Shown here in pieces: positions 6,365 through 62,937 of a stretch of 64,000 nt of DNA. The position numbers and the translations under genes were made by a program. Source of the stretch: an uncultured Saprospirales bacterium (GTDB lineage: Bacteria; Bacteroidota; Bacteroidia; Chitinophagales; CAJXBJ01); NCBI GenBank assembly GCA_913050195.1, contig CAJXBJ010000001.1, forward strand, positions 2,916 through 66,915, written 5' to 3'. The notes beneath the pieces are model-generated. The model saw nothing but the letters and a program-made list of their open reading frames with translations, ran no database searches and was not told where the DNA came from. Every line of letters starts with the position of its first letter. Positions within the stretch are counted from its first letter, which is position 1.

Positions 6365-6378
6365 CTATACACTTTATT

Positions 6379-10305: not shown

Positions 10306-10370
10306 TATTTAATGATTTTACGTTAAAAGGTGGTCAAAATGCTTGCCACTGCAAAAATAAAGACATTTTG

Positions 10371-45979: not shown

Positions 45980-45984
45980 CTACA

Positions 45985-47298: not shown

Positions 47299-47308
47299 CG
47301 AACACCTA

Positions 47309-48133
47309 TTATTTTACTCGCTTCGCATTTGTGTATATGTTAAATCGATCTTCTTTGGCAAAACCAATTAAGGTCATTCCACTTTCTCTTGCTAAATCCA
47401 CTGCCAAGCTTGATGGCGCACCCACAGACACCAGCATAGGAAGATTTGCATTTGCTGCCTTTTGAACCATTTCAAAGCCTGCACGGCCACTCAACCATAA
47501 TAGATGCTCTGAGACCTCTAGATTATTAATAAGCATATAACCAATCAGCTTATCAAGGGCATTGTGCCGTCCAATATCTTCAAATATTTTTATCAATTTG
47601 GCATCCTTATCAAAGAGCGCTGCTGCATGCAGACCACCAGTATGCCGAAAAATAAGCTGTTCATTATCGAGTTTACTTTGGAGCTTAAACAAATCGTGCT
47701 TATTTAGGTTCCACTGATGCTTACTTGTCTCAAAATCACACTTCAATGCATCAATCGTTGATTTACCACATACACCACAAGCTGAATTCATATAAGCAAA
47801 TCGCCCTAAACGTGCATGATCAACTTGAACGTCTGGTGATAATGAAACTCTAATAACATTGCCCTCTTCTTCGGGCTTAACTTTTATACAATGCTTTGCA
47901 GAAATGACATCTTCTCCACTAGATATAACCCCTTCTGATTTTAAAAGACCAATAGCTAAATAGTCATCCTCACCTGGTGTCCGCATTGTCACTAAGAGAT
48001 TCTTGCGATACCTACAGTTCTCCAAACCAAATTCAATCTGTATCTGTAAGGGTTCTTCTACAACAATTAGATCATCTTGCTCAGACTTACTTTCCAATTG
48101 GTGTTTTTCTATGGATAGTGCATTAACTTTCAT
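47309..48133 (-). CDS. fdhD: Formate dehydrogenase accessory sulfurtransferase FdhD
   Basis: The conserved Cys loop NSACGVCGKSTIDAL and the C-terminal GGLHAAALF...GRHNALDKLIG...SGRAGFEMVQKA pattern are present. I prefer the ATG at 48133; the ORF-track TTG at 48139 adds 2 residues. Confidence 0.9.
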   Translation of the reverse strand: MKVNALSIEKHQLESKSEQDDLIVVEEPLQIQIEFGLENCRYRKNLLVTMRTPGEDDYLAIGLLKSEGVISSGEDVISAKHCIKVKPEEEGNVIRVSLSPDVQVDHARLGRFAYMNSACGVCGKSTIDALKCDFETSKHQWNLNKHDLFKLQSKLDNEQLIFRHTGGLHAAALFDKDAKLIKIFEDIGRHNALDKLIGYMLINNLEVSEHLLWLSGRAGFEMVQKAANANLPMLVSVGAPSSLAVDLARESGMTLIGFAKEDRFNIYTNAKRVK

Positions 48134-48244
48134 CAGCAATTTAATATTTGCATTATAAAATAAATCTGTAATACGTTTTTTTAATGGGTTAGTTATATTT
48201 TATTTTGTGTACCACTTTTGTAATTATCATACCAATATAGAGCT

Positions 48245-48766
48245 ATGAACACATTCCTCAAATTTCTTTCATATTCCAGTTACTTTTTTTATATACTATC
48301 TTGCTATTGCATATTAATGAGTTTGTACGTAGGCTATACAGCAGAAGACCCCATGCTTGTTGAGCCTAATTTTTTGGACTATGGCGGATATGGCATCTTT
48401 TGCCTAGGTCTATATATTGCCCTTAAGGGAATGTCTGATGATATTACTGTTTTCTCTGAAAAAGAACTAAGCCTGTTAACGAACGATAAAAAATTAAAAC
48501 GAAAAATCTATAGCTACAAATTCGTTGCAATTACATTTACAATATTTTGTTTTGTATTCATACCCATAAGGTGGCTTGACTGGGATTGGGGATCCTATGG
48601 AGAGGAGGCTTCTAATTTTGCTATAAATTTCATCCCACTAATCATTGCATCTATTTTTGAAATAAAACAACTGAATGACAGAAAGGAATACTACAACCTT
48701 CTACAGAAACATCAAAAGGCAATAAACACATCTGATATTGAGCCTGAGGAGGCATTAGAAGGCTAA
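48245..48766 (+). CDS. Small membrane protein, unknown function
   Basis: 173 aa with about 4 hydrophobic helices and an acidic tail. Divergent from fdhD. No motif recognised. Confidence 0.45.
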   Translation: MNTFLKFLSYSSYFFYILSCYCILMSLYVGYTAEDPMLVEPNFLDYGGYGIFCLGLYIALKGMSDDITVFSEKELSLLTNDKKLKRKIYSYKFVAITFTIFCFVFIPIRWLDWDWGSYGEEASNFAINFIPLIIASIFEIKQLNDRKEYYNLLQKHQKAINTSDIEPEEALEG

Positions 48767-49158
48767 AGCTTCTGCCACTTATGATTACTCATAAGCTTGA
48801 ACTTGCCCACCAGCTCAAAATTATATTTACGCCCCCACTCTTCTGGTGAAAGCATACTCAAGAAGTATTCCTCTTCTCGACTATATAGATAATAGATCTT
48901 TCCAATGACAGGCTTAAACTTCATCTCTGCAGAATAGACCATATTATTCCACTTCACCTCATCCATCAAGTCAATGTATCGACTTTTAAGCTCATCAAAC
49001 TCTTGCTTGAATATATCGCTTAGCTCATTGGAAACATTTGCCAAATACAAGTCCATTTTTTCAGGAGCAAAAGAAGGTGCACCTAGATTAGTTGGATACT
49101 CCATTGCATGTGGTTTATCCACTACCATATCTGGCTTGTCTTTTTTCTTTTTTGACAT
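48763..49158 (-). CDS. Conserved hypothetical protein (DUF2452-like)
   Basis: The pattern ...MVYSAEMKFKPVIGKIYYLY...FLSMLSPEEWGRK...KLMSNHKWQKL resembles, from memory, the Bacteroidota DUF2452 family. Function unknown. Confidence 0.5.
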   Translation of the reverse strand: MSKKKKDKPDMVVDKPHAMEYPTNLGAPSFAPEKMDLYLANVSNELSDIFKQEFDELKSRYIDLMDEVKWNNMVYSAEMKFKPVIGKIYYLYSREEEYFLSMLSPEEWGRKYNFELVGKFKLMSNHKWQKL

Positions 49159-49197
49159 GATTCAAAGATAGATATTTTAAAGTATATTTGGTATTGC

Positions 49198-50184
49198 ATG
49201 AGCGCCCTTATTGACACTTTTAATCGAAGCCATAACTATCTTAGAATATCCCTGACAGATCGATGTAATCTTAGGTGTCAATATTGTATGCCAGAAAATC
49301 CAAACTTCATGCATAAGAATACGCTTATGACAGCCAATGAAGTGGCTACTCTTGCAGAGCTATTTGTTGCTAAATATGGGATTAAAAAAATTCGGCTCAC
49401 AGGAGGAGAGCCATTAGCAAGAGTAGACTTTGATGCTATTTTGAATTCCCTTTCTATGCTCAATATTGAGCTAAGCTTAACAACCAATGGCATACTATTG
49501 AACAAACACTTTGGTGCTTTAAAAGAGGCAGGCATTAAAAGCATAAATATTAGCCTTGATACACTTGACGGTGATCGCTTTAAATTACTTACAAGACGAG
49601 ATAACTTTCAACAAGTATGGGATAACATTATTAAGGCTACTGAGAACTTTATATACATAAAGCTCAATGTTGTGGTCATGAAGGGCATCAATGAAGATGA
49701 AATTATTGATTTTGTAAGACTTAGCAAGCAGCTACCTATACATGTGCGCTTTATTGAGTTTATGCCCTTTTCGGGGAATAAATGGGAAAGGGCTAAGGTC
49801 ATAACTCAGCAAGAGATACTTGATATTATCGCTAGACAAGAAAGTTTTGAAAAGGTGATAGATCACAAACATAGCACAGCGAGAGCTTATCGTTTAAAAG
49901 ATGCAATGGGTACATTCGCTATTATCAGCACAATTTCAAATGGCTTTTGCTCAAACTGTAATCGAATAAGACTTACAGCGGATGGAAAGATTCGAAATTG
50001 TTTATTTGACACTGGAGAAATCGACTTGCTAAAGCCGCTTAGAAATGGAGATGATGTTTGCACAAGTATTGAGCAAAGCATACAAAATAAAAAAGCGAAA
50101 TTTGGAGGCCTTCCACACTTTGAAAAGGAAGCAGAAGTACGCAAACAACTGGACTCACGCAGTATGTTAAAGATTGGAGGCTAA
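49198..50184 (+). CDS. moaA: GTP 3',8-cyclase MoaA (radical SAM)
   Basis: CNLRCQYC is the radical-SAM cluster. RLTGGEPL and the C-terminal CSNCNRIRLTADGKIRNC second cluster follow, and the protein ends in GG. Confidence 0.95.
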   Translation: MSALIDTFNRSHNYLRISLTDRCNLRCQYCMPENPNFMHKNTLMTANEVATLAELFVAKYGIKKIRLTGGEPLARVDFDAILNSLSMLNIELSLTTNGILLNKHFGALKEAGIKSINISLDTLDGDRFKLLTRRDNFQQVWDNIIKATENFIYIKLNVVVMKGINEDEIIDFVRLSKQLPIHVRFIEFMPFSGNKWERAKVITQQEILDIIARQESFEKVIDHKHSTARAYRLKDAMGTFAIISTISNGFCSNCNRIRLTADGKIRNCLFDTGEIDLLKPLRNGDDVCTSIEQSIQNKKAKFGGLPHFEKEAEVRKQLDSRSMLKIGG

Positions 50185-51102
50185 TTACTGGCCATGTCTA
50201 AAGCTTTCTTCCTGAACTTTAAAGATGTGCAACACAAAAGGAAAGAGCGCATCCATACTCTCCTTAGCACCACCACTTGAACCTGGCATAGTGATAATTA
50301 AACTACGACCAACCATTCCTGCTACTCCTCTAGAAAGCATGGCGTAAGGCATCCTATTTTGACCGTAATTTCTAGCTACTTCCATTATACCCGGCACCTC
50401 CATATCTAAAAGTGGCTTAATGGCGTCGGGTGTATAATCTTTGGGCGACAATCCTGTCCCTCCTGTTAGGATAATGAGCCGATTCTCTGCACTCAGTAAA
50501 TCTTGAACCTTTAATTGAATTTTATCAATATCATCAGGAATTATTGCATAGGTCTGTACATCCACATCATAAGAGACTAGCTTTTCTTTAATAATGAGAC
50601 CAGCCTTGTCTTCTTTTTCTCCTTTTGAGACAGAATCTGAAACCACTATAACTGCTGCTTTAACCTTTTCATGGAAGCTTTCCTTGTATGAGGACTTACC
50701 TCCTTTCTTTTTCTCTAATTGAATATTTTCTATACTTACTCCTTTGTCTATTGGCTTAAGCATATCATACATCGTTAATGCCGCAATAGAAGCTCCATGC
50801 ATAGCCTCTACCTCTACGCCTGTTTTATATACTGTGGCCACTTCAACTTTAATATCAATGTATATATCTCCTAGCTCATAATCAACGCTTGTCTTTTCTA
50901 CTGGCATTGGATGACAGTCAGGGATTAATTCAGCCGTTTTTTTTACGCCAAACAAAGCTGCAATACGCGCGGCCTCCAATACATTACCCTTTGGCACTTG
51001 ATTGTTTTTTATTGCTTGAATAGTTTCCATGCTACTGGCCTTAACTCTCGCACTCGCGATCGCCTGACGATAGGTTGATGATTTATGTGTGATATCAATC
51101 AT
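50185..51102 (-). CDS. moaC: Bifunctional MoaC (cyclic pyranopterin monophosphate synthase) / MoaB-MogA-like fusion protein
   Basis: The N-terminal half has LIPDCHPMP and GVEVEAMHGASIAALTMYDM (MoaC). The C-terminal half has VIVVSDS...LTGGTGLSPKDYTPDA (MogA/MoaB fold). Confidence 0.9.
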   Translation of the reverse strand: MIDITHKSSTYRQAIASARVKASSMETIQAIKNNQVPKGNVLEAARIAALFGVKKTAELIPDCHPMPVEKTSVDYELGDIYIDIKVEVATVYKTGVEVEAMHGASIAALTMYDMLKPIDKGVSIENIQLEKKKGGKSSYKESFHEKVKAAVIVVSDSVSKGEKEDKAGLIIKEKLVSYDVDVQTYAIIPDDIDKIQLKVQDLLSAENRLIILTGGTGLSPKDYTPDAIKPLLDMEVPGIMEVARNYGQNRMPYAMLSRGVAGMVGRSLIITMPGSSGGAKESMDALFPFVLHIFKVQEESFRHGQ

Positions 51103-51554
51103 ATCGTTGTGTTTTCCTTCACAATATAGCTTCCGTCATCAAGAAGCTCTTTGCCAAACACTGGCGCCTTTTCTTTTATTTCTTCTACTAGAAAAGCCAT
51201 TGCATCTCTAGAGGCTTTTCTATGCGGAGAAGAAACAAATACAAACAAAGAAATCTCTCCTACCTTCACTTCTCCTAGACTGTGATAAATGTGCATGCAT
51301 GTTATATCAAATTTATCAAAGGCATTTTCCCTAATCTCATGAAACACTTGATTTGCCATGGGCTCATAGGCCGAATATTCTATTAACACAGCCTTCTTTC
51401 CTTCATGGGAATCTTCCCGCACCTGTCCTAAAAATATTTCGTGTGCACCTATTTGTGTTTTTGACTGGTGTTTCGCTATTGAATCAGCAATAAAATCAGG
51501 TGCTATAGGCCCCTGCTTCCAAACTGTTTTTATCTTTTTATCTGACATACTCAT
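51099..51554 (-). CDS. moaE: Molybdopterin synthase catalytic subunit MoaE
   Basis: IGAHEIFLGQVRED..., HSLGEVKVGEISLFVFVSSPHRKAS... and the PVFGKE tail fit the MoaE pattern. ATGA overlap with moaC/B. Confidence 0.88.
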   Translation of the reverse strand: MSMSDKKIKTVWKQGPIAPDFIADSIAKHQSKTQIGAHEIFLGQVREDSHEGKKAVLIEYSAYEPMANQVFHEIRENAFDKFDITCMHIYHSLGEVKVGEISLFVFVSSPHRKASRDAMAFLVEEIKEKAPVFGKELLDDGSYIVKENTTI

Positions 51555-52907: not shown

Positions 52908-54071
52908 ATGAAAGCATTAAAAATAACAGGAATAATTATTGGTATCCTAATCTTATTAGGCATTGGTGTTATAGGCTATGGTGCATATAACATGAAGAAA
53001 GATGCGAACCCAGAAATAAACACAAGAGACCTTGAAGCAAAAATCGATGAAAGGTTCAATAAAGTTTTGAAATTAAACTTACGCACAGGCATTACCATAG
53101 CCTTATATAAAAACGACACTATACTGATAAAGAATTATGGTTTAAAGGATAAAGAAAGTGGCGAAGCTGTAGACACCAGCACCATCTTTGAAATTGGCAG
53201 TATAACTAAAGTATTTACAACCTCTTTATTACAAATGACAGCTGATGCTGGACTGGTTAAGCTAGATGATGACTTCAGACAATATTTACCAGATACTATA
53301 GAATATGGATTTGAGTATCCAATAAGTCTTGAGCAACTTGCCACACACACCTCGGGTTTCCCTAAGCTACCTTCAAGATGGTTTGATGATAGTTTGGTCG
53401 TTAATGAATGCAATCCATATACCCACCTTAATTTTGACACTATAGTCGCCTACCTGGAAAATCCTAGCGAGTTAAGCAAGCCAGGCAATGTCGCCTATTC
53501 TAATCTTGGCAATGGCTTAATTGGACATGTTCTAGAGCGGGTGCATAACAAAAGCCTTAATGAGCTGCTTGACAGTATGATATTCACACCACTTAATATG
53601 CCACATTCAGGTATAGAAACTGACTCTAGCTTAAAGCATTTACTTGCAACAGGTTATGATGCAGAAGGCAAAGCTACATGTAACTGGCAATGGCCTATTC
53701 TTGCCGCTTGTGGAGCCATAGAATCTAATATTCCAGATATGTTACAATTTTTAAAGGCTAATTTGAATGAAGACAATCCACTATATGCTTCTTTTTCAAA
53801 ATGTCACCAAGCTAGCCTAAAAGCCCCCAATGGGAGTCAAGGCTTGGGTTGGCAGCTTGAATTAGATATTTTTAGCTCATTTTTATTTGAGCATCATAAG
53901 GATTTCATTTGGCATGATGGGGGTACTGGTGGTTTCAATTCAGGCATTGTTTTAGATAAAAAAACAAATACTGGAATTATAATATTGAGCAGTGGAAGTC
54001 CATTTACAGCACAAATGTCTATGGAGGGTTTTGGTATTTTAAACGATGCTAGAACTGTTTCTATTAATTAG
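52908..54071 (+). CDS. Membrane-anchored serine hydrolase, class C beta-lactamase / esterase (EstB-like) family
   Basis: N-terminal TM helix, SxxK (GSITKVF), the YxN motif (AYSNLG) and a C-terminal HDGGTGGF box. Confidence 0.85.
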   Translation: MKALKITGIIIGILILLGIGVIGYGAYNMKKDANPEINTRDLEAKIDERFNKVLKLNLRTGITIALYKNDTILIKNYGLKDKESGEAVDTSTIFEIGSITKVFTTSLLQMTADAGLVKLDDDFRQYLPDTIEYGFEYPISLEQLATHTSGFPKLPSRWFDDSLVVNECNPYTHLNFDTIVAYLENPSELSKPGNVAYSNLGNGLIGHVLERVHNKSLNELLDSMIFTPLNMPHSGIETDSSLKHLLATGYDAEGKATCNWQWPILAACGAIESNIPDMLQFLKANLNEDNPLYASFSKCHQASLKAPNGSQGLGWQLELDIFSSFLFEHHKDFIWHDGGTGGFNSGIVLDKKTNTGIIILSSGSPFTAQMSMEGFGILNDARTVSIN

Positions 54072-54092
54072 AATTATATCAATTCATTAAAT

Positions 54093-54124
54093 AAAAAAGG
54101 GCTAGCGAATGCTAGCCCTTTTTC
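54093..54124. terminator. Bidirectional rho-independent terminator (AAAAAAGGGCTAGC-GAAT-GCTAGCCCTTTTT)
   Basis: A perfect 8-bp GC-rich stem GGGCTAGC/GCTAGCCC (54099-54106 and 54111-54118) with a 4-nt loop, flanked by an A-run and a T-run. It lies between convergent genes ending at 54071 (+) and 54144 (-). Confidence 0.8.
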
Positions 54125-54143
54125 AAACAAAAATCAGTCTTAA

Positions 54144-54953
54144 CTACATAATGTCATTCCACATTGCTGTGCTGTATCTGTTAATAGCCATTGTCATTAA
54201 TAGGCCTTGTTTCGTGTGATTCGATAACTTTTTATTGGCAACTATCATATTTTCCATTTTAACTGAAAAGTGTTGAAGTGCTGCCACACTTTTTGTGCGA
54301 AAGCAATTATCAAAATAGAAATTCAAAATCCATTTATTTGCCGGTGACAAGTTCGACTTACCAATCTCTTTTAAAATAGCTTCGTTTGATTTTGCATTCA
54401 CAATCCCAGAAACCGTTGAAACAAGCTCCTTCTCACTAATCACTCTACTTGGATCTACATTTGTTGCTAATACAGCACCATCATATACTGAAAGTTGATT
54501 ATCTACTGAAGCAATAGTTCCGTTAATTACAAGCTGATTGTGATCATAACCCATAAAATCAAAACTATTATTTGGATTAGGTAGTGTAGATTCTTTGTAC
54601 TGACCTCTGTTTATATTTTTATACCAGTCAAAACCATTTCCTCCATTGACATCCATTGCGCAAAGCACTGAAGTTACAGCAGCCCCTAAGACACAGTCTA
54701 CAAGATCACCGCCTTGATAATACGTCCATGCGCCACCCAAAGCATCTTTTGCTGCAAGGACCCACCATACTCTATTACATTGTTGATCAGTTATAAACTC
54801 TTGAGACATCTGCTCTGCCTCTATTTTGAATTGTTCAGTTAAGACATCTGTGTCAGATACAGGACTGACAATTTCATTCTGCTTAGTACAGCTTGTTAAC
54901 ATTAATAATACTGAAAGAAGTACGCTTGTTATTGATAAAGTTAAAGTTTTCAT
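54144..54953 (-). CDS. Lipoprotein of unknown function, cassette copy 1
   Basis: MKTLTLSITSVLLSVLLMLTSC is a signal peptide with a lipobox Cys. It is a paralog of the gene at 55310-56209. The ORF-track start at 55028 lies upstream of the predicted -7 box and only reads through the A/C-rich leader. Confidence 0.7.
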   Translation of the reverse strand: MKTLTLSITSVLLSVLLMLTSCTKQNEIVSPVSDTDVLTEQFKIEAEQMSQEFITDQQCNRVWWVLAAKDALGGAWTYYQGGDLVDCVLGAAVTSVLCAMDVNGGNGFDWYKNINRGQYKESTLPNPNNSFDFMGYDHNQLVINGTIASVDNQLSVYDGAVLATNVDPSRVISEKELVSTVSGIVNAKSNEAILKEIGKSNLSPANKWILNFYFDNCFRTKSVAALQHFSVKMENMIVANKKLSNHTKQGLLMTMAINRYSTAMWNDIM

Positions 54954-54996
54954 AGTTATTGTTTTTGTAAGTTGATTTAATTGTTGTTTTGTGTTT

Positions 54997-55004
54997 ACAA
55001 ATCT
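54997..55004 (-). promoter_or_regulatory. Bacteroidota-type -7 box candidate (GAGATTTG on the minus strand) for lipoprotein copy 1
   Basis: It matches TAnnTTTG at 6 of the 8 positions (5 of the 6 specified bases), with a TTG about 20 nt upstream. A 43-nt A/C-rich leader follows before the ATG. The same GAGATTTGT word precedes copy 2. Confidence 0.35.
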
Positions 55005-55255
55005 CCAATACTTACACACAGAATTCAATCCAATTATATTTTAGGATTATATTTCTAACTACTACTTATCGCATAACTTGTTCTTTTTGTGTGTATTAAT
55101 TCTACTATATTAATTTATTAAGCCTTGCCAAAAAGGCTATACAATAGAATCCATAACAATAACTCAATGAATTAGTGAGACATAAAAGAAAATAATATAC
55201 TAGTGAAAGTATTAGTCATAAAAGGTAGTTAGTCTATATAATTACAGCTATAAAC

Positions 55256-55286
55256 AAAAAAAAGGGCTAGCAAATGCTAGCCCTTT
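55256..55286 (-). terminator. Rho-independent terminator of lipoprotein copy 2 (GGGCTAGC-ATTT-GCTAGCCC + T8 on the minus strand)
   Basis: A perfect 8-bp stem at 55264-55271 and 55276-55283, followed on the minus strand by a run of eight T (55256-55263). The stem sequence is identical to the terminator at 54099-54118. Confidence 0.8.
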
Positions 55287-55309
55287 CACAAACAAAAGTC
55301 AACCTCAAA

Positions 55310-56209
55310 TTACAAAACTGAGTTCCATAAGTTAGCACTGTGCTTTGCGACAGACATCGTCAATAATAGACCGTCTTTAGTTTCTTTCTTAAGTCCTTTA
55401 TGAGCAACTACCATGTTCTCAACATTCACTGAGTAATTTTGAAAGGCAGCTATGCTTTTTGCATTAAACATTACTGTAATGTAATTACTTAGAATAAGTT
55501 TAGTGGCTTTGGGGAAAGTAGAGTTATTGATGAATTTTATAAAGTCTTGTTCACCTTTACATTTAGAGAATGAATAAGCAGTACTGTTAAAGTCTTTCTT
55601 AGAAATTAAATCTTTAGAGTTCGATTCTACACACATTGCATTGTAGAGACCTTTATTATCTTTCGCCCATGTTAATAGTATTTCTGGGACATAATCATTA
55701 TGTAACATTCCAATCTTTTCCATATAATTTTTTGAATTAGGGTTTGTAAGCTCCACATATTTGCTAATATCATTAAACCAAGGAATTGAACAAATCGGTA
55801 AACTATCTGAAGTTACTGATACTTTAGCCGCACCACACACATAACTAAGAGAAAAACCAGCTGCCCCCCATCCTATATCTTCCCAACTTGAGTTATTATC
55901 ACTCATATATGTAAACAAACCACCTATTGCATCACAAGCCACAACCCGACCAACAATTGGCCAAATTCTCTGACCTTGATCAGTGGTATACTCATAAGAC
56001 ATATTCTCTAAGTCTGTTAAAAATTCCTGGCTAAGCACATCGTTGGGCTGTGTAGGATTAATCATTTCTTGATTTTTGCTACAGCTTGTAAAGATCATTA
56101 GTACTGAAAGAAATAAGCTGGTCATTGTTAAGGTTAAAGTTTTCATAGTTGTAGTTTTTGTTGTTAATGTTTGTTTATTGTTGTTTAAGTTTTGAATTGA
56201 AGTTTTCAT
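55310..56209 (-). CDS. Lipoprotein of unknown function, cassette copy 2
   Basis: It contains MKTLTLTMTSLFLSVLMIFTSC (signal plus lipobox) beginning at the internal ATG 56146. The first ATG after the promoter box is 56209, which adds 21 polar residues (MKTSIQNLNNNKQTLTTKTTT). The true start is one of these two. Confidence 0.7.
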   Translation of the reverse strand: MKTSIQNLNNNKQTLTTKTTTMKTLTLTMTSLFLSVLMIFTSCSKNQEMINPTQPNDVLSQEFLTDLENMSYEYTTDQGQRIWPIVGRVVACDAIGGLFTYMSDNNSSWEDIGWGAAGFSLSYVCGAAKVSVTSDSLPICSIPWFNDISKYVELTNPNSKNYMEKIGMLHNDYVPEILLTWAKDNKGLYNAMCVESNSKDLISKKDFNSTAYSFSKCKGEQDFIKFINNSTFPKATKLILSNYITVMFNAKSIAAFQNYSVNVENMVVAHKGLKKETKDGLLLTMSVAKHSANLWNSVL

Positions 56210-56255
56210 AATTGTTTTTTTAAGTTGTTTGTAATTGACTTGTTTTTGTTGATGA

Positions 56256-56263
56256 CAAATCTC
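56256..56263 (-). promoter_or_regulatory. Bacteroidota-type -7 box candidate (GAGATTTG on the minus strand) for lipoprotein copy 2
   Basis: The same GAGATTTGT word as upstream of copy 1. The leader to ATG 56209 (about 46 nt) aligns with the copy-1 leader (…CAACTTA[C/A]AAAAACAAT…ATG). Confidence 0.35.
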
Positions 56264-56372
56264 TTACTCTTTGGCCACGCTTACAATCCAAATAGCGGCC
56301 TTTTATATGTTTTTTACATTATTTATTTTTATATTTATATACTGATTTTCAGTATTTTATAATATTTTTTCT

Positions 56373-57899
56373 ATGCCTGATAAAAGTGAACTATTTAAGC
56401 TCATAAAAAGCCTAACAAAGTCTGAAAAAAGACACTTTAAGCTTCAGGCAAAGGGTTTTTCGGGACAACAAACAGCACACTATGAAATTCTTTTTAATGC
56501 GCTTGACAAACAAAAAGAATACAGTAGAAGTAAGACATTGATTGCTCTCAGAAAAGCTGGAGCCAAAGTTGAACTTCCAGTATTAAAACAATATCTATTT
56601 GACTATCTCCTTAAAAGCCTCGCATCTTTTAACAGCAAGAAAGATATTGATAATCAACTTTCAAGCATGATTAATAGCACAAAAGTACTTTTGAATAAAA
56701 AGCTATTTAAGTCTGCCGAAAAAGCCTTAGCAAAAGCTCGTCGCATCGCCCAAAAACATGAACGCTTCATTCGTCTACTAGAGATTAACAGAATAGAACA
56801 ATTAGTACTTCAACAAAAAGGAGATTTTAAAGCCTTAGAAAAAAGATTTGAATCTTATCATGAAGAAGAACTTACCCTTATTGAAAAAGAAAAAAATATT
56901 CGGCAGTTTAGGTCATTAGCCATTGAGAACTTTATCAACTACTATAAAACACCAGCAATTAGGAATAAAAAAGAGCAGAATAAACACCTCAAAGCAATGA
57001 ACAATCCTCTTATTAAAGACCGACAAGACATCACAAGCTACTCTAGCTATGTTCTACACAATATTTCAGGCCAATATTATGAAGGATCTATGGACTACAA
57101 CAGCCTATACAAACACACTAAAGCTTGTATTTTAATCTTTGAGGATAATATTGTTTTTAAAAACTCAGAACAAAAATTCTATGTATCAGCAGCCTCAAAT
57201 CATATCCTTGCATGTATAAAGCTTAGAAAAAAGACGGAAGCAGAAAACACAATAGCAGTTCTTAATAGCTATGCTGAAATTAAGCTTAAAAATAGTAGCC
57301 CTCTCTTTTACAGCAACACCTTTCAAAACACCATACTACTGAAACTGCTCTTGAAGTTTTGGACGTTTGAATTCAAAGAAGCATGCAGTTATTATTTGGA
57401 GAATATAGACCACATAACATCAGCACCCAAAGCCTATGTCAAAGAGAATGAGTTCTTATTACTTGGTGCCTTATCCTTCTTTTATTTGGGCAAGCATAAT
57501 AAAGCCTTGGATGCTTGTATTACAATCATAAACAAGCCTTCAGGAATTGGTGATTATATACAAAGTGTTGTTAGATTCTTAAACTTAATCATCCATTATG
57601 AGCTAGAAAACTACAACTTGCTTGATTATCTAATTACTTCAAGCTATAGATTTCTTTTAAAAAGAAAAAATCAATTTAAAACAGAAAAGGTAGTTATGAA
57701 TCTAATAAAAAGCCTTGCTGCAAGTGTAGATAAAGCTAAAACTGAAAAACTACTGACTAATGCATTAAGTGAATTAAGAGGTCTAAAAAATAATCCTTTT
57801 GAAAAAAAGGCCTTTGAATATCTCGATTATGAAGTTTGGGTTAGGTGTAAGCTTAAGAAAATACCAATCACACAAGTATTAAAGCCAGACAACCTCTAG
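56373..57899 (+). CDS. All-helical (TPR-like) cytoplasmic protein, unknown function
   Basis: 508 aa with no signal peptide or TM segment. Composition is helical and Lys/Leu-rich throughout. The N-terminus ELFKLIKSLTKSEKRHFKL is not assignable to a family I can name. Its 3' end overlaps convergent moeA by 21 nt. Confidence 0.6.
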   Translation: MPDKSELFKLIKSLTKSEKRHFKLQAKGFSGQQTAHYEILFNALDKQKEYSRSKTLIALRKAGAKVELPVLKQYLFDYLLKSLASFNSKKDIDNQLSSMINSTKVLLNKKLFKSAEKALAKARRIAQKHERFIRLLEINRIEQLVLQQKGDFKALEKRFESYHEEELTLIEKEKNIRQFRSLAIENFINYYKTPAIRNKKEQNKHLKAMNNPLIKDRQDITSYSSYVLHNISGQYYEGSMDYNSLYKHTKACILIFEDNIVFKNSEQKFYVSAASNHILACIKLRKKTEAENTIAVLNSYAEIKLKNSSPLFYSNTFQNTILLKLLLKFWTFEFKEACSYYLENIDHITSAPKAYVKENEFLLLGALSFFYLGKHNKALDACITIINKPSGIGDYIQSVVRFLNLIIHYELENYNLLDYLITSSYRFLLKRKNQFKTEKVVMNLIKSLAASVDKAKTEKLLTNALSELRGLKNNPFEKKAFEYLDYEVWVRCKLKKIPITQVLKPDNL

Positions 57900-59039
57900 C
57901 ATATCCCCGGTATTAAAAGAGTGGATATTGGATGGTAAACAGACTAATACATCTGAAGTAGCAAGAGACTGAAGCATATGAGATGCTTGACCCTTTTGTA
58001 GATGAATTTCATACTCAATTACTTTCGCAGAAACAAAATGAGTCTTTCCATCATTCTTCTTGCTGTGATCATGCCCAAGTGGTAAGTGAATAATTCTATA
58101 CTCAGTTGAAGAAAGCAATGAGCGGACGTATACATAAAAACAACTCATTACTGATCTGGGGTTACCTGGCAAGCCAAAGGCTAACTGACCTTTATTTTCA
58201 GCAAACAAAAGAGGCTTTCCTGGCTTTTGAGCTATTTTATGAAAGCATTTTTTAAACCCGAGCCTTTCTAGGGCAGGTAAAGTAAAGTCATAATCTCCTA
58301 CAGAAACACCACCGGTAATCAATATAAGCTCATTTTCATCGCTAGCAAGCTGAATGGAATCCAACATTTCTTCCATGGTATCTCGAGCTCTATACAGCTT
58401 GCTCTTCAGGCCTAGGCTTTCTATAGCCGCAGATAACATAGGACCATTCGACTCATATATAAGCCCTTCTCTTATGTCATCAGGACCATCAGCAAACTCA
58501 TTGCCTGTTACTACAATGCCTACGCTTAACTCCTCAACCATAACTTCTTCAATACCTAAAGAACAAAGCAAGCCTATGCTTGATGCATTTAAACGGTGCC
58601 CTGCCTCAAGCACCTTGTCCCCAGACTTAAGCTGTTCTCCTTTTTTTCTGATATTCGAACCTATTTTGAAGTTATGTTCTTCTATACTGAGCTCATCGCC
58701 TGTTACCTGTGTATATTCCTGCATAACTACAGTATCTGCATCTGAATACACAGGAGCACCAGTCAGGATCCTAATAGCCTCGCCCTTTGCTAAACCTTTA
58801 TAACTTTCACTGCCTGCAGCTGTTTCTCCAACAAGCTTTAAGCTCGACTTGTGACTCCAATCATTTAATCTAAAGGCGTACCCATCAACAGCGGACTGAT
58901 CAAAAAGAGGGTGATCAATCGGTGAATATATTGGCTCTGCAAGCACACAACCTAGCGAGTTTGCTATTGTAACACTTGACTTTGAAAAGCGAAGATTATG
59001 CTTTGATATAATCTGCTTTGCTTCTTCTACACTTATCAT
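57879..59039 (-). CDS. moeA: Molybdopterin molybdenumtransferase MoeA
   Basis: SPIDHPLFDQSAVDGYAF, ITGGVSVGDYDF and GLPGNPRS are MoeA hallmarks. ATGA overlap with the hpt stop. Confidence 0.92.
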   Translation of the reverse strand: MISVEEAKQIISKHNLRFSKSSVTIANSLGCVLAEPIYSPIDHPLFDQSAVDGYAFRLNDWSHKSSLKLVGETAAGSESYKGLAKGEAIRILTGAPVYSDADTVVMQEYTQVTGDELSIEEHNFKIGSNIRKKGEQLKSGDKVLEAGHRLNASSIGLLCSLGIEEVMVEELSVGIVVTGNEFADGPDDIREGLIYESNGPMLSAAIESLGLKSKLYRARDTMEEMLDSIQLASDENELILITGGVSVGDYDFTLPALERLGFKKCFHKIAQKPGKPLLFAENKGQLAFGLPGNPRSVMSCFYVYVRSLLSSTEYRIIHLPLGHDHSKKNDGKTHFVSAKVIEYEIHLQKGQASHMLQSLATSDVLVCLPSNIHSFNTGDMLEVVWL

Positions 59040-59587
59040 TTGAGCTGATAGATACCTTTAAAGTTTCGACCTTTATAGTCATAATCCAAGCCGTAACCAA
59101 TAACAAACTTATTGTCAATCTTAAAGCCCAGATAATCAATAGTAATGCTGTGCTGCAAAGCCTCTGGCTTATTCAGCAAGGAAGCAATTTTAATCTCTTT
59201 TGCTCCTCTACTCTTTAAATCCTTCAAGTAATGATGCAAGGTATTACCTGTATCTACGATATCCTCAACTACAATAACCGTTCTATCTTTTACATCAATA
59301 TCTATGGCTGCCACTTCTCGAACGACACCAGTAGATTTCTGCCCTTGATAAGAGGCTAGCTTTGTAAAAGTTACCTGACAATCAATAGGTACTTCTTTAA
59401 TTAAGTCTGAAGCAAACATGAAGGCTCCATTTAAAACTACGATAAACAATGGTTGTTTATCACCACAATCTCTAACAATAGCCGCCCCTAACTCCTTTAC
59501 TCGCTTATCTATTTCTTCTGGCGAGATATAAGGAACGAAAGTCTTATCGTGTACTACAACTTCATCTTGTCCTACCTGATCTATCAT
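59036..59587 (-). CDS. hpt: Hypoxanthine phosphoribosyltransferase
   Basis: The PRPP-binding motif VIVVEDIVDTGNTL, the ~180 aa length and the C-terminal VIGYGLDYDYKGRNF typical of Hpt. Confidence 0.93.
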   Translation of the reverse strand: MIDQVGQDEVVVHDKTFVPYISPEEIDKRVKELGAAIVRDCGDKQPLFIVVLNGAFMFASDLIKEVPIDCQVTFTKLASYQGQKSTGVVREVAAIDIDVKDRTVIVVEDIVDTGNTLHHYLKDLKSRGAKEIKIASLLNKPEALQHSITIDYLGFKIDNKFVIGYGLDYDYKGRNFKGIYQLK

Positions 59588-59635
59588 TAAAATGACTTTT
59601 AACTAAGATATGATTTCATTTTCGAAAAATAAAGT

Positions 59636-61066
59636 CTATTTACCTCTTCTACCTTCTAATATCTTATAAAAAGATCTACTTCTTATCTCATCCAAAGTAA
59701 GGCTGGTCTTTAAAGCATCCTCTTCCGATATAGCCCCACAGTTAAGTGCACTTAAGAAATAGTTAAGCAAACCTTGCCCTGTAGCTGCATCATCAAAAAC
59801 ATCTCCAGAAAGTGTTGCTTGTGCTGCTTTTGAAACAAAGTTTCTCAGTCTTAAGGTTGCCTCTTCATAGCTTTCTAAAAAATATGAGTAAACAGCCATG
59901 TATCTTATAGGCAATTGCGCTGGATGAAGATCCCAACCTTGATACATTCCTTTCCATAAGGTATGTCTATTATGATCATAAGCAAGCTTCCAAGCCTTAT
60001 GAACTACTTCAGTATTTTCCTTTTCTTGAGCTTTGCTTAGACCATCCCCTCTGTGTGGGCCCACTGGCATTACATTAGTCGCTCCATCACTGAGAAATAT
60101 TCCAGTCCCTCCAAGGGCTACTTTCATCATATGGTGGGCAAAGTCACATACCTGATGATTCATCACTTGATACTCTGCTGTAATACTACATGAGGCTGTA
60201 TAATCATAGGTACCGAAATGAGCACCAGTAATCCGCCCTTTAGAGGCTTTAATCAAACCCATAAGTGGATTTTTTCCCTTCGCATTTACGACTGATTGAG
60301 TTGTTTCAACCATAATCTCCATTTTAAGACTCCCCTCCTCAAGACCTGTATTCTCTTCTATTAACTCAAACAACTCTACCAAGGCTGTAACTTGTTCTGG
60401 TATTGTAACCTTAGGCAAGGTAACCACAAAGTTATCTGGAAGCTTGTTCGATGTTAATGGCAATAATGTACTTAGAAAAATATCTAGTGTGCGAACTCCT
60501 CGCATCTTTAAATCTTCTGTAAAAGGCTTAATTCGAATACCAATGAAAGGCGATATCGTTCCTGCTTGCATGCCCTTAGCCAGTTCTTGAGCTGCATTAA
60601 CCGCTGTAGCGTCTTCTTCATCATCAGGTCTATTGCCAAAGCCATCTTCAAAATCAATACGAAAATCCTCAATAGCCTCTCTAGAGAGCTTTTCTTTCAT
60701 TTTGTTGTAGACCGTATATGCCAACCAAGCTTCATGGGACTGACGATCATCCTCAGACATTGCATCTAGCTCACTAACCAAAGCATCTATATCTGACTTA
60801 TTATCAGGCATATTTTCATGGCCTCGAATCTCGAGTGCCTTAGCCATGACCACAAAATTTGGTGCATAAGCATCTAAATTACCTTGAGCTACTTTACCCA
60901 TTTTAACTGTCCTGTCAGACTTAAATAGGTTTGCCCCACCATAAACAGTATGTACTGGTTGACGATCCGTAGAATCTCCCTTATATACTTTTTGAAATTT
61001 GGCATTAGCCTTGCCTAACTTGTTTAGAATTTTGGACTTTTTATCCTCTGGCAAAATTGAATTCAT
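59636..61066 (-). CDS. Malate-synthase / CitE (HpcH-HpaI)-superfamily TIM-barrel protein, function unassigned
   Basis: Superfamily-like motifs read from the translation: IDFEDGFG (compare DFED of malate synthase and DLED of CitE), MEIMVETTQSV (IET strand), GAHFGTYDYTAS (compare GRWDY) and GWDLHPAQL (HPxQ). It is embedded between uraH and hpt. Confidence 0.5.
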   Translation of the reverse strand: MNSILPEDKKSKILNKLGKANAKFQKVYKGDSTDRQPVHTVYGGANLFKSDRTVKMGKVAQGNLDAYAPNFVVMAKALEIRGHENMPDNKSDIDALVSELDAMSEDDRQSHEAWLAYTVYNKMKEKLSREAIEDFRIDFEDGFGNRPDDEEDATAVNAAQELAKGMQAGTISPFIGIRIKPFTEDLKMRGVRTLDIFLSTLLPLTSNKLPDNFVVTLPKVTIPEQVTALVELFELIEENTGLEEGSLKMEIMVETTQSVVNAKGKNPLMGLIKASKGRITGAHFGTYDYTASCSITAEYQVMNHQVCDFAHHMMKVALGGTGIFLSDGATNVMPVGPHRGDGLSKAQEKENTEVVHKAWKLAYDHNRHTLWKGMYQGWDLHPAQLPIRYMAVYSYFLESYEEATLRLRNFVSKAAQATLSGDVFDDAATGQGLLNYFLSALNCGAISEEDALKTSLTLDEIRSRSFYKILEGRRGK

Positions 61067-61076
61067 AATAATTTAT

Positions 61077-61415
61077 TTAGCTCCCTCTATATGTTGAATA
61101 CCCAAATGGGTTTAGTAATAATGGCACATGATAATGCGATTGATCAAAGGTTTCGAACACTATTGTAACATATGGATAAAACCCCTTAATTGATTGACCG
61201 TAAAAATAAGCGCCTGTGTCAAAATACATTCTATATGTTCCTGGATCAAGCAATTCTCCTTCTGATAATAAATCCGGCACTCGACCATCCGAATTAGTCT
61301 CACCCTGTCCTATGGTTTGCCAACTATCTCCCTCTGGCTTTTGAAGCATACACAGCACACCTTCTGCAGGCTTACCTGTCGAGGTATCCAATATATGCGT
61401 CGTTATCTGACTCAT
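61077..61415 (-). CDS. uraH: 5-hydroxyisourate hydrolase (transthyretin-like)
   Basis: ITTHILDTSTGKPAEGV at the N-terminus and the diagnostic C-terminal YSTYRGS tetrapeptide region. About 112 aa. Confidence 0.93.
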   Translation of the reverse strand: MSQITTHILDTSTGKPAEGVLCMLQKPEGDSWQTIGQGETNSDGRVPDLLSEGELLDPGTYRMYFDTGAYFYGQSIKGFYPYVTIVFETFDQSHYHVPLLLNPFGYSTYRGS

Positions 61416-61915
61416 GACAATAGCTTATTTATTCTTAAATGGGTGATTTTCCTTTGCTCTTCTGCGGCTTGCAAGATTTCCATTTCCGTAGAATTTGGAA
61501 GACGCCCTTCAAGAATTTCTAACATTTCACCTGCTGTTTTTCCTGTGGCGCAGACGATAAAAATAAAGCCATGCTTGGCATAATAGTCTTCGTTTAATAA
61601 AGCCAACTTCTTAATTATATCCTCGGTTGCTACTGCAACACCCGACTGCTCTCCTTCTGACCAGGATGCTGTAGATGCAAACTTTTCTTTAAGGCTGTTC
61701 ACATCTCCAATTTTAGGATGGTGCGTGAATGCTTCCAAAAAATCGTTATTATTACAATTATCCCAGCACTCATCCGCTTTTTCATGCAGCTCTACCATGT
61801 TTGCATAAGGTGCTTTAAGGATCATGCTCTGCACCCATTTTGACGAACCGTTACATCTTGTAAGCTCCTCTTTCATACTTGCCTCTTCTAAGGCATTTAA
61901 TTCTGTTAATTTCAT
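61412..61915 (-). CDS. uraD: 2-oxo-4-hydroxy-4-carboxy-5-ureidoimidazoline (OHCU) decarboxylase
   Basis: The AFTHHPKIG motif, ...SWSEGEQSG..., about 165 aa, and ATGA overlaps with allantoicase upstream and uraH downstream. Confidence 0.88.
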   Translation of the reverse strand: MKLTELNALEEASMKEELTRCNGSSKWVQSMILKAPYANMVELHEKADECWDNCNNNDFLEAFTHHPKIGDVNSLKEKFASTASWSEGEQSGVAVATEDIIKKLALLNEDYYAKHGFIFIVCATGKTAGEMLEILEGRLPNSTEMEILQAAEEQRKITHLRINKLLS

Positions 61916-62937
61916 GTTGTTATTTTGGTTCCAAATGCTCTTAAGCGGCTTATCCCACCATCTGGAAAGATATTTAATCGTAAATGCGTAAATGGCCCAC
62001 GTGCCATTAAATCTTTAAAATAGTGCTCATGATCTGCTTGAAGCTTAGCTTTATCAAGAACTGTTGTCCAATTTATATCATCTGAATCTAAGTCTATACT
62101 CTCAGTATTACATGCTTCAATGGAACAACTATCTGGATAATTTCCTTTAAAATGACATGTATCAACTAATAGTTCTTCCAAATTAGACTGATGGCCTAAT
62201 TTCAAGATCACCCAGTCTCTATTATTAGGCGTACGGTTTCTTTTTGTCTCCCAGCCATCGCCCATATTTATACCACGTCCTGGCATGGTTAAATTATCCA
62301 TGTGCGAAAAAAACATATCGTTACACAAAACGGCTTTACCACCATTTAATGCCGAAGCCATATCTAATTGCTCATTAGAATCTACTAAATCCCAGTTTTT
62401 AAATACTTCACCATATACTTTCAGCCTTGCTACTCCTCCATCTGGATATATTTGCAACCTCAGATGTGTCCAAACTTCGTCGCTATTTATTTCATAGAAA
62501 TTATGATTACCCTGCTCTAATGGGCTCCTAGATAGAATAGTCGTCCACTCTACCTTATCATTCTCTAAATCCTCTAAAGAAACATCTTCATGCAGACAAC
62601 ATGCCTCCAAAGCCGCATGTGGTGGATGATTCCCCAAGAAATGGTTAGTATCTATATCAACACCTATGATTTTACCTGGGGCCCCTAATTTTAAGATCGC
62701 CCAATCATTACCCTCTGTCCGTTTCCTTCGAGACTCCCATCCATCCATCCATTTACCTCTTTCAGTAAACTTATCTTCAATAAAAATACCTCGTCCTGGC
62801 TTAATTAAATTATGCACGGAGGCAAAAAAGTCATCACTACAAGACAAGACTTTACCACCCAAGCGTTCTTGAGCCAAGTCCATATTTTTTACAAATTGTG
62901 GCGATGATTTCTCAACTATTACTACTTCTGACCGCAT
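61912..62937 (-). CDS. alc: Allantoicase
   Basis: Two allantoicase repeats, each with the DGWE(S/T)(R/K)R motif (MDGWESRRKR, GDGWETKRNR) and ...IFPDGG(V/I)(A/S)RL... The start at 62937 overlaps the allB 3' end by 26 nt. An alternative ATG at 62883 (MDLAQERLGG) avoids the overlap. Confidence 0.9.
   Translation of the reverse strand: MRSEVVIVEKSSPQFVKNMDLAQERLGGKVLSCSDDFFASVHNLIKPGRGIFIEDKFTERGKWMDGWESRRKRTEGNDWAILKLGAPGKIIGVDIDTNHFLGNHPPHAALEACCLHEDVSLEDLENDKVEWTTILSRSPLEQGNHNFYEINSDEVWTHLRLQIYPDGGVARLKVYGEVFKNWDLVDSNEQLDMASALNGGKAVLCNDMFFSHMDNLTMPGRGINMGDGWETKRNRTPNNRDWVILKLGHQSNLEELLVDTCHFKGNYPDSCSIEACNTESIDLDSDDINWTTVLDKAKLQADHEHYFKDLMARGPFTHLRLNIFPDGGISRLRAFGTKITT

Follow-up and report, generated by a model that had tools for sequence, protein, structure and literature searches.

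Two tandemly duplicated lipoprotein cassettes in an uncultured marine Bacteroidota bacterium and the exchange of a central module between alleles of one of them

Bacteroidota possess unusually many lipoproteins, most of which have no known role. Lipoproteins that combine a lipobox with a Gly/Ala helical hairpin and a globular domain include SlyB/PCP, YiaD and the Rickettsia 17-kDa antigen (Gly-zipper_Omp, Gly-zipper_YMGG), and allelic lipoproteins are exemplified by OspC of Borrelia, a polymorphic helical lipoprotein with conserved ends and a variable middle, which occurs as discrete, recombining alleles. Among the regulators of Bacteroidota, RusR (BT2802) is a candidate positive regulator that is needed to induce the ribose locus of Bacteroides thetaiotaomicron (bioRxiv 10.1101/574913). 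Features that recall these systems come together in a locus of two tandem minus-strand lipoprotein genes, here designated A and B, within a 64,000-nucleotide (nt) stretch of DNA (hereafter the window) from an uncultured Saprospirales bacterium (assembly GCA_913050195.1, contig CAJXBJ010000001.1, positions 2,916 to 66,915). This paper describes the allelic variation, expression signals, relatives and neighbourhood of this locus. The comparisons indicate that A and B descend from an old duplication of a whole expression cassette, that they belong to an uncharacterised family spread over the Bacteroidota, and that B occurs as discrete old alleles between which a central module is exchanged by recombination.

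Gene A (54144-54953, minus strand) encodes a lipoprotein precursor of 269 amino acids (aa) that starts with MKTLTL, and its paralog gene B (55310-56146, minus strand) encodes a precursor of 278 aa, or of 299 aa when translation starts from an upstream ATG at 56209; the products score 234 and 238 bits, respectively, with a hidden Markov model (HMM) of the family. These open reading frames (ORFs) and their lipoboxes confirm the two tandem lipoprotein genes proposed in an initial annotation, which had been made from the letters of the window. The two proteins align from end to end with 34% identity (BLASTP, E 2e-49), which is distributed unevenly over the signal peptide (68%), residues 23-65 (39%), residues 66-205 (24%) and residues 206-278 (44%). 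The core is poorly conserved, as that annotation had it, but it is not barely alignable, as the alignment runs through it and retains an NPN..G..HN motif. Likewise, the signal peptides and lipoboxes (MKTLTLSITSVLLSVLLMLTSC in A, MKTLTLTMTSLFLSVLMIFTSC in B) had been quoted correctly, but with 15 of 22 positions identical, and cassette ends that agree at approximately 70-86%, the term near-identical overstates their likeness.

At the nucleotide level, A and B resemble each other at the two ends of the cassette only, over 186 nt at its start (leader, signal peptide and N-terminus; 70% identity) and over 51 nt at its end (terminator; 86%), versus 33-57% in the core, which bears out the earlier view that the ends and expression signals are better preserved than the protein core. 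Synonymous divergence (dS, Nei-Gojobori) between A and B is saturated, and the duplication is therefore old. Together with the promoter-like word pair and the terminators that both copies share, the end-only similarity establishes, at the level of sequence, that A and B are free-standing transcription units that arose long ago, when an entire cassette of promoter, leader, gene and terminator was duplicated in tandem; duplication of a whole promoter-gene-terminator unit had been proposed before. No ORF was found between or after A and B, and a small partner ORF is absent. A conserved disulfide pattern was considered and dropped, since the positions of the Cys residues differ between alleles.

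Allelic variation of B was assessed with L001, a syntenic sister contig that is approximately 95% identical to the window overall and is an error-prone long-read contig; with L128, a clean TARA contig that carries the same allele as L001; and with L126, a contig that is 84% identical and has other flanking genes, and that shares a third allele with L002. A hypervariable block at 55533-55949 (minus strand; codons ~66-205, ~420 bp) includes the hydrophobic hairpin of B as well as the first half of its helical domain. In this block, nucleotide identity to L001 and L128 is 43-73%, versus 95-100% in the flanks, and of 414 sites each, 152 in the block and 17 in the flanks differ between the window and L001 (Fisher p = 3e-34). 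The divergence of the block amounts to 27-57%, includes indels, and is not confined to one base type. For codons 66-205 of the window and L001, dS is 1.50 and nonsynonymous divergence (dN) is 0.38 (dN/dS 0.25, Nei-Gojobori), and for the ends dS is 0.14-0.20, giving a synonymous divergence of the block that is approximately tenfold that of the flanks. Gene A and its ortholog in L001 are 95% identical at the protein level, with a dS of 0.145. The third allele is 90-95% identical to B at the nucleotide level over the first 55 codons and 92% over the last 40, and its middle is 31-58% identical to B (31% at the protein level in the block), which equals the distance between A and B. Hence, strains that are otherwise 95-99.6% identical differ by 30-55% in the module of B. 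Conserved ends around a diverged core are found among natural alleles of B as well as between A and B, and in this sense the locus is the variable lipoprotein locus that had been suspected.

The window and L128 are 99-100% identical across the 6 kb left of B; from approximately codon 22 of B rightwards, L128 is 97.6-99.6% identical to L001 and only 80-95.6% to the window. This switch therefore marks a natural crossover inside the conserved 5' end of B. The two copies of the B' allele in L001 have 2 differences within the block, and the allele of the window was found identical in another TARA sample; because of these near-identical copies and this recurrence, the alleles of B are regarded as discrete and stable rather than hypermutating. 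Moreover, because dS is saturated in the core and low in the flanks, the core is regarded as old and moved by recombination rather than as fast-evolving. Taken together, the identity patterns demonstrate, for the alleles compared, that the central module of ~420 bp is exchanged by recombination between old, discrete allele classes (B, B' and B'').

The dN/dS ratio was below 1 in every region and for every pair, with values of 0.05-0.25 for the ends and 0.25-0.47 for the core of the B alleles. Judged from these ratios, the core of B is under weaker purifying selection than the ends, without evidence of positive selection. The initial annotation had read the pattern as diversifying selection, an interpretation that is not supported by ratios below 1 throughout and a core that is old and recombined; it had itself named a profile that is flat and below 1 as contrary evidence, and the profile is indeed below 1, but it is not flat.

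A distinct pattern was observed for the 22 signal-peptide codons (54953-54888 in A, 56146-56081 in B), for which the proportion of differing synonymous sites (pS) is 0 when the three B alleles are compared and 0.24 when A is compared with B, versus 0.55-0.80 elsewhere, and 0.07-0.32 among A-type genes of which the other regions are saturated. This suggests that the 5' end is subject either to constraint at the nucleotide level on the start of the mRNA or to repeated homogenisation.

Some further rearrangements were seen in and around the locus. In L001, the B' cassette occurs twice in tandem (8584-9697 and 9842-10953; 96% identical), the first copy being frameshifted, and the 140-nt junction between the copies includes a degenerate remnant of the 5' end of the RusR-like gene; L128 contains a single copy of the B' cassette. 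The further, apparently recent, tandem copy in this sister strain represents either strain-specific copy-number variation or an artefact of long-read assembly. The spacer between the B terminator and the A promoter contains a second small replaced block (55054-55173, minus strand, ~120 nt), which is 60-72% identical to L001 and 69-80% to L128, versus 92-97% for neighbouring stretches. In addition, the 3' end of the beta-lactamase-like gene next to A cannot be aligned between L128 (8151-8394) and the window (53813-54056), with both sides being 91-94% identical; L001 and the window are 92-100% identical over 53906-54094. This difference looks like another recombination patch beside the locus.

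In Bacteroidota, Shine-Dalgarno sequences are lacking, promoters consist of a -33 TTTG and a -7 TAnnTTTG element, and initiation regions are A-rich and unstructured, with A at -3, -6, -12 and -13 (PMC6847099, PMC9723704), positions reported as positive determinants in PMC6847099. In promoters of Flavobacterium johnsoniae, T-12, A-11, T-8, T-7, T-6 and G-5 are near-invariant and G is almost absent at -10/-9 (PMC6847099). Both cassettes of the window are preceded by the words TTGGATTG-N20-GAGATTTGT, which occur exactly twice in the 64 kb, once for each cassette. The element of B (56255-56291, minus strand) is kept in L001, L128 and L126, and that of A (54997-55033, minus strand), with identical words and spacing, is also found before the A-type gene in L003 and in L001/L128. 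The word GAGATTTGT had been recognised before in both copies, but the element of B reaches 56291, beyond the right-hand limit given at that time. The -7-like box GAGATTTG agrees with the F. johnsoniae consensus at five of its six near-invariant positions, and TTG is located 20 nt upstream of it in both cassettes. A GAnnTTTGT variant of this box followed by an A/C-rich leader recurs before family members in L003 and L125 and before the second gene of L126, the variant being found in five family members. The TTGGATTG-N20-GAGATTTGT elements are probably promoters, and possibly of a special class. A scan for sigma-70 promoters was discarded as uninformative for Bacteroidota (14 sites versus 12.5 expected).

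The leader of A (54954-54996, minus strand) consists of 43 nt without a single G and has a predicted folding energy of 0 kcal/mol, and the leader of B (56147-56254, minus strand) of approximately 108 G-poor nt with a predicted energy of -0.5 kcal/mol. The main start codons of both genes have A at all four determinant positions (-3, -6, -12 and -13), and the upstream in-frame ATG of B at 56209 at three of these (-3, -6 and -12). The start region of B is locally duplicated 63 nt apart (repeat family D3), which accounts for its longer leader. As a result, 56134-56221 (minus strand) contains two in-frame ATGAAAACTT starts, 63 nt apart and both in an A-rich context, of which the upstream one would prepend a 21-aa N/T/K/Q-rich extension to the signal peptide. 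An equivalent layout, with starts 60 nt apart, is present in L124 (1737-1830) for P0011, a homolog with 28% identity, and because this distant homolog shares it, the dual start of B may be conserved rather than accidental. The idea of a riboswitch or leader RNA was rejected, as the leaders are simply unstructured; no Rfam family matched at the gathering threshold in the whole window, a permissive scan of the locus gave sub-threshold matches on the terminator hairpins only, and no tRNAs were found in the window.

Both genes are followed by hairpins with the properties of intrinsic (Rho-independent) terminators, i.e., a stable hairpin after the stop codon and then a U run. The terminator of A (54094-54123) has perfect arms of 13 bp (-23.1 kcal/mol, z -7.3) and is flanked by an A run and, on its opposite side, a T run. 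That of B (55260-55287, minus strand) has a stem of 12 bp (-20.0 kcal/mol, z -5.5) with a U run behind it. The identical stem noted earlier in both was confirmed: GGGCTAGC-N4-GCTAGCCC occurs exactly twice in the window, with 0 expected from 100 shuffles. In the L002/L126 ortholog the hairpin is preserved by a compensatory A-T to G-C change and a G-U wobble, and the terminator in L004 has a different stem sequence. A distance of 23 nt separates the hairpin of A from the stop codon of the convergent beta-lactamase-like gene (52908-54071), and because of this proximity and of the A and T runs on either side, it probably acts in both directions.

Divergently from B, a RusR-like gene (56373-57899, plus strand) encodes a 508-aa distant homolog of BT2802/RusR, which spans 3-503 of 502 in the match to NCBIfam model NF058569 (E 3.8e-35; 121.8 bits versus a cutoff of 550) and has no Pfam match. 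The divergent pair of a RusR-like and a B-type gene is retained in L128, in L001 and, with entirely different flanks, in L126, where a distant helical-first family member, rather than A, comes after the B-type gene; a RusR-like neighbour was found at none of 111 distant loci that contain the family. Because the pairing survives in the different neighbourhood of L126, it is plausible that the RusR-like protein is a dedicated regulator of the cassette promoters.

On the other side, the beta-lactamase-like gene (52908-54071), which is convergent on A and shares its terminator, encodes 387 aa with an N-terminal membrane helix and a similarity to class C beta-lactamase/AmpH (E 4e-37) that is far below the family cutoffs; a gene with a glyoxalase fold also adjoins A. 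Genes for moaA, moaC-mog, moaE and mobA are located on one side of the locus, and moeA and purine-catabolism genes on the other. The locus interrupts a block (43679-51554 and 57879-64000) of molybdenum-cofactor genes, a molybdopterin oxidoreductase, and purine/ureide catabolism genes (allantoicase, DUF6986, phosphoribosyltransferase). A link to the molybdenum-cofactor genes was dropped, as the B-type gene of L126 lies elsewhere, and the association is probably positional only. The locus is part of an ordinary chromosome with a GC content of 35.7%, and other parts of the window encode cargo proteins of the type IX secretion system and CarboxypepD_reg-type TonB receptors, in line with Bacteroidota.

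The initial annotation did not recognise the protein family, and the searches agree with it: for A, B and typical relatives nothing above threshold was found in Pfam, NCBIfam, PADLOC or PHROGs, and a sequence-profile search of the PDB gave no match. Close relatives of A and B were encountered in marine metagenomes only. An exhaustive profile search puts the family at 150 or more cluster representatives (E <= 1e-3), most of them 250-300 aa long; a genome scan with the close-family alignment gave no match, two metagenome scans gave neither a match nor further alleles, and a third word-index protein search with the family profile added nothing. An alignment of 41 cluster representatives has four features in common, i.e., the lipoprotein signal peptide, a W..(A)D..GA..G...G glycine-zipper stretch, an N.NN.[FY]D..G..HN motif, and a C-terminal F..YS...EN....L....K..LL..MA.ARYS..W motif, and D72, N140, H149, E243 and L261 (B numbering) are invariant. 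The proteins join a glycine-zipper hairpin led by Trp/Asp to a helical domain with the motifs NPxNxYDxxGxxHN and K..LL..S.ARYS..W. Typical relatives have, by eye, a long Gly/Ala zipper (e.g., ADALGALAGGASGATIGGNIGAIGAVGG), and in A and B the zipper is degenerate.

Species genomes of GTDB were searched with a hand-made degenerate DNA pattern for the HN motif, which gave 119 loci, 111 of which hold an ORF that matches the family HMM. Nearly all of these 111 are labelled Bacteroidota (Flavobacterium, Saprospiraceae, Chitinophagaceae, Sphingobacteriales, Lentimicrobiaceae). Most genomic members have the reverse order, with the helical domain first and a hydrophobic Gly-rich stretch at the C-terminus, and an HMM of the hairpin that was built on the hairpin-first group matches 15 helical-first proteins in their C-terminal tails and not a single reversed-sequence control. 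These profile matches establish that A and B belong to an uncharacterised, Bacteroidota-wide family in which a hairpin and a helical domain occur in either order. The AlphaFold2 model of B, obtained with the 41-sequence alignment, is all-helical with 11 helices after the signal peptide (mean predicted local distance difference test score 85.7, predicted template-modelling score (pTM) 0.81), and the five models agree. In Foldseek searches of two models against the PDB, all template-modelling (TM) scores remained below 0.2.

Tandem pairs of family members are present in unrelated Bacteroidota (L018, L021, L057, L089, L100, L113 and L118) and in L002 (1171-1857) and L126 (7026-7778). The pair in L126/L002 consists of a hairpin-first and a helical-first copy, and in L113 a hairpin-first copy adjoins a helical-first copy whose hydrophobic C-terminal tail is different. 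Distant helical-first members from Chitinophagaceae, Sphingobacteriales and others adjoin genes of conjugative transposons in L056, L044 and approximately 17 other loci, their neighbours including TraN (17 loci), TraM (11) and serine recombinase (12); in L056, TraN lies at 2808-3749, the family gene at 5080-5820 and the serine recombinase at 6329-7981. From these neighbours it follows that part of the family travels on integrative conjugative elements. In approximately 25-29 Flavobacterium loci (e.g., L106, 1173-2942; L052, 3342-4277) the family gene usually adjoins an AraC-type regulator or a TPR-transmembrane-AraC-HTH protein; these loci stem from related species and hence are not independent observations. 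Finally, family members were found in records labelled as non-Bacteroidota (L010, L013, L041, L047, L054 and L087), namely metagenome-assembled genomes (MAGs) of Acinetobacter, Citrobacter, Acidobacteriota and Hyphomicrobiales and a Nitrosomonas strain, which could reflect MAG contamination or horizontal transfer.

The lipobox of A (MKTLTL...LLMLTSC) fits the classical form [LVI][ASTVI][GAS]C and that of B (MKTLTL...LMIFTSC) has F at -3; both agree with lipoprotein signals by reading, rather than by a dedicated predictor, and Cys22 is conserved in more than 90% of the 41 relatives. Surface export of lipoproteins in Bacteroidota is directed by the signal C-x-K-(D/E)2 or Q-A-(D/E)2, with the variants SDDDD in Bacteroides fragilis and SDDFE in F. 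johnsoniae (PMC5080379). The residues from the Cys onwards in A (CTKQNE) and B (CSKNQE) contain a single acidic residue, at +6, and do not form this signal, which is present in approximately 7 of 35 hairpin-first relatives. The surface exposure envisaged in the initial annotation is thus not borne out, and we infer that A and B are lipid-anchored in the outer membrane and face the periplasm more likely than the surface. The hairpin, which holds the invariant Asp, would sit in or against the membrane.

An account that joins the old duplication, the permutable family and the recombining alleles of B to a proposed location, regulation and maintenance of the alleles is given an even chance of being right as a whole. 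In this account, a tandem duplication of the whole cassette produced A and B long ago. The ends have stayed alike for two reasons: they hold the signal peptide, the signals for expression and those C-terminal helices that are under the strongest constraint, and they double as handles for homologous recombination, with crossovers in them shuttling the ~420-bp central module between old, discrete B alleles. The RusR-like protein would control the promoters of A and B, and the allele classes of B would be kept by frequency-dependent selection exerted by an outside partner, e.g., a phage, the toxin of a competitor, or a predator. On this view, the products of A and B would be envelope lipoproteins under regulation, and B would be maintained in the form of old, discrete alleles.

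Several observations weigh against this account. The sample consists of three B alleles in two independent genomic contexts, and one of the sources of alleles (L001) is an error-prone long-read contig. Balancing selection at B is deduced indirectly, from the discreteness and age of the alleles, and neutral import of a divergent segment via the conserved ends would look like balancing selection. The rule for the export signal was derived from few species. With respect to the membrane, the hairpins of A and B are of borderline hydrophobicity (19-residue Kyte-Doolittle maxima of 1.4-1.9) and have a degenerate zipper, and the pTM of 0.81 suggests a single compact fold. The promoters are recognised by resemblance only, as GAGATTTG has a G instead of the near-invariant T-12 and a further G at -10. 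Moreover, the RusR-like protein scores far below the cutoff of its family model, RusR is no more than a candidate regulator, and every homolog in an isolate genome bears the name hypothetical protein or lipoprotein.

The neutral explanation, in which A and B are ordinary paralogs with a loosely constrained middle and incidental recombination with a divergent lineage, is considered unlikely. It agrees with the dN/dS below 1 everywhere and with a region that recombines as a whole, the spacer and the 3' end of the beta-lactamase-like gene also holding divergent blocks, and conserved ends would permit import of a foreign segment without selection. It agrees less well with three allele classes that combine ends of 90-100% identity with middles as distant as A is from B and that occur in genomes 84-99.6% identical elsewhere, with the adjacent gene A of the same family, which is without such a block, and with the almost frozen synonymous sites of the signal peptide (pS 0 among the B alleles). 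Alternatively, A and B could be surface-exposed variable lipoproteins of which the core was driven apart by positive selection on amino acids. The core is indeed the least conserved part, both between the paralogs and among the alleles, its dN/dS in the B alleles (0.25-0.47) exceeds that of the ends (0.05-0.25), and the canonical export signal occurs in approximately 7 of the 35 hairpin-first relatives. However, this is judged unlikely: no region attains a dN/dS of 1, synonymous sites are saturated in the core and not in the flanks, CTKQNE and CSKNQE are not export signals, and the 2 differences within the block between the recent duplicates in L001 imply that there is no ongoing hypermutation.

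Orphan immunity arrays provide an analogue for another explanation, in which periplasm-facing lipoproteins protect against the envelope toxins of competitors and are kept as a diversified array. Lipoproteins without an export signal, tandem copies that each have a promoter-like element, and discrete alleles would all suit such a role, as would the 7 of 111 loci with two full-length family matches (4 more have paired fragments) and the distant relatives on conjugative elements beside TraM, TraN and serine recombinase. Since PADLOC and immunity families gave no match (one relative versus BSAP-5i reached a non-significant E of 0.007), no cognate toxin is known, and the invariant Asn/His/Glu/Lys set resembles a binding or catalytic site more than a simple plug, this role is regarded as distinctly unlikely. 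It is highly improbable that the proteins are membrane-active effectors, with the glycine-zipper hairpin as a pore-forming or disrupting module carried by the helical domain. The arrangement of a helical bundle around a hydrophobic hairpin recalls pore-forming colicins. The hairpin of typical relatives is a long Gly/Ala zipper, and killing proteins with glycine zippers are documented (PMC5380434). These likenesses are opposed by the lack of an immunity gene, an exporter or a double-glycine leader nearby, by Foldseek searches that gave no colicin-like or other fold (TM-scores below 0.2), by the degenerate zipper of A and B, and by a lipid anchor that argues for a resident envelope protein. Programmed variation, whether through a diversity-generating retroelement, through an invertible promoter or by gene conversion with silent cassettes as donors, shares with the locus the layout of conserved ends around a variable core, and is hardly credible here. 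No silent cassette, partial cassette or second copy of the block was found in the 64-kb window, inverted repeats do not bracket either promoter-like element, and no reverse transcriptase or recombinase was detected among the 22 window ORFs scanned with Pfam or NCBIfam (approximately 25 ORFs of at least 120 aa were unscanned); in addition, the changes span base types and reach 57%, and the recent duplicates are near-identical. All three mechanisms were dropped for this window.

The family defined by this locus is widespread and is covered by neither Pfam nor NCBIfam models, nor does any fold in the PDB match it. Two features make it tractable, namely the occurrence of its two parts in either order, which constrains their packing, and an allelic module whose recombination breakpoints have been mapped in marine populations in the wild. 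If frequency-dependent selection does maintain the alleles, the locus would be a compact marker of strain-level specificity towards phages, competitors or conjugation in ocean flavobacteria, and would offer a natural example of modules being exchanged via conserved ends of genes. Moreover, the conserved pairing with a RusR-like gene could provide a second, non-sugar context for this little-understood type of regulator. A more far-reaching proposal is advanced tentatively and is probably wrong in its full form: the family might be a new class of regulated envelope proteins of Bacteroidota, in which the permutable hairpin and the novel helical domain make up a specificity module whose discrete, recombining alleles determine whether a cell is susceptible or resistant to a phage, to a contact-dependent toxin or to a conjugative element (e.g., by entry exclusion), and the RusR-like gene, B and A would then constitute a compact, exchangeable self/non-self locus of marine flavobacteria. 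If none of these proposals holds, a well-described pair of hypothetical lipoprotein paralogs is left.

Compared with the known systems, A and B share with the SlyB/YiaD-type proteins the lipobox, the Gly/Ala helical hairpin and the globular domain. The glycine-zipper/OmpA model of YiaD was matched weakly by three relatives (best E 2e-4) and Gly-zipper_YMGG by one (E 0.046), but no curated cutoff was reached, and A and B, having no Pfam or NCBIfam match, do not qualify as members. They differ moreover in a globular domain that is all-helical, without a PDB match, rather than beta or OmpA-like, in a distance of approximately 40 residues from lipobox to hairpin, in a hairpin that can be C-terminal in the family, and in the invariant Asp and the degenerate zipper. 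The expression signals resemble those of Bacteroidota sigma-A promoters in the TTG word ~20 nt upstream of nAnnTTTG and in the A-rich leader (PMC6847099, PMC9723704), but the -7 box begins with G rather than T and has a G at -10. Like rusR, the gene for the 508-aa neighbour, of which the product aligns with the RusR family model over its full length, flanks genes that it possibly controls; unlike at the RusR locus, these encode lipoproteins rather than kinases or SusC/D, and DNA binding by RusR is itself only predicted. The long GxxxG-type zipper of typical family members is also seen in glycine-zipper toxins, i.e., Caulobacter CdzC/D and class II microcins such as microcin V. In contrast to these small, secreted peptides or proteins with a dedicated exporter and an immunity gene, A and B have a Sec/lipoprotein signal and a 170-aa helical domain and no immunity gene. 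No colicin-type pore-forming bundle was recognised in the proteins, nor, with 22 of the window ORFs scanned, a diversity-generating retroelement target in the window, and an invertible promoter is not indicated, as no recombinase was found in the flanking genes scanned. The polymorphic toxin/immunity pair that had been suggested at the outset is at variance with full-length paralogs of the same architecture, with no small intervening partner ORF and no match to a toxin or immunity family. The closest resemblance in allelic structure is to OspC, as the locus has conserved ends, a variable middle, and alleles shuffled among close strains; unlike OspC, which is exposed at the surface to host immunity, A and B are without an export signal and belong to a free-living marine host, and there is no relation in sequence or fold. 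The protein family, its permuted architecture and its pairing with a RusR-like gene are absent from the libraries searched, and the phenomenon itself is of a known kind.

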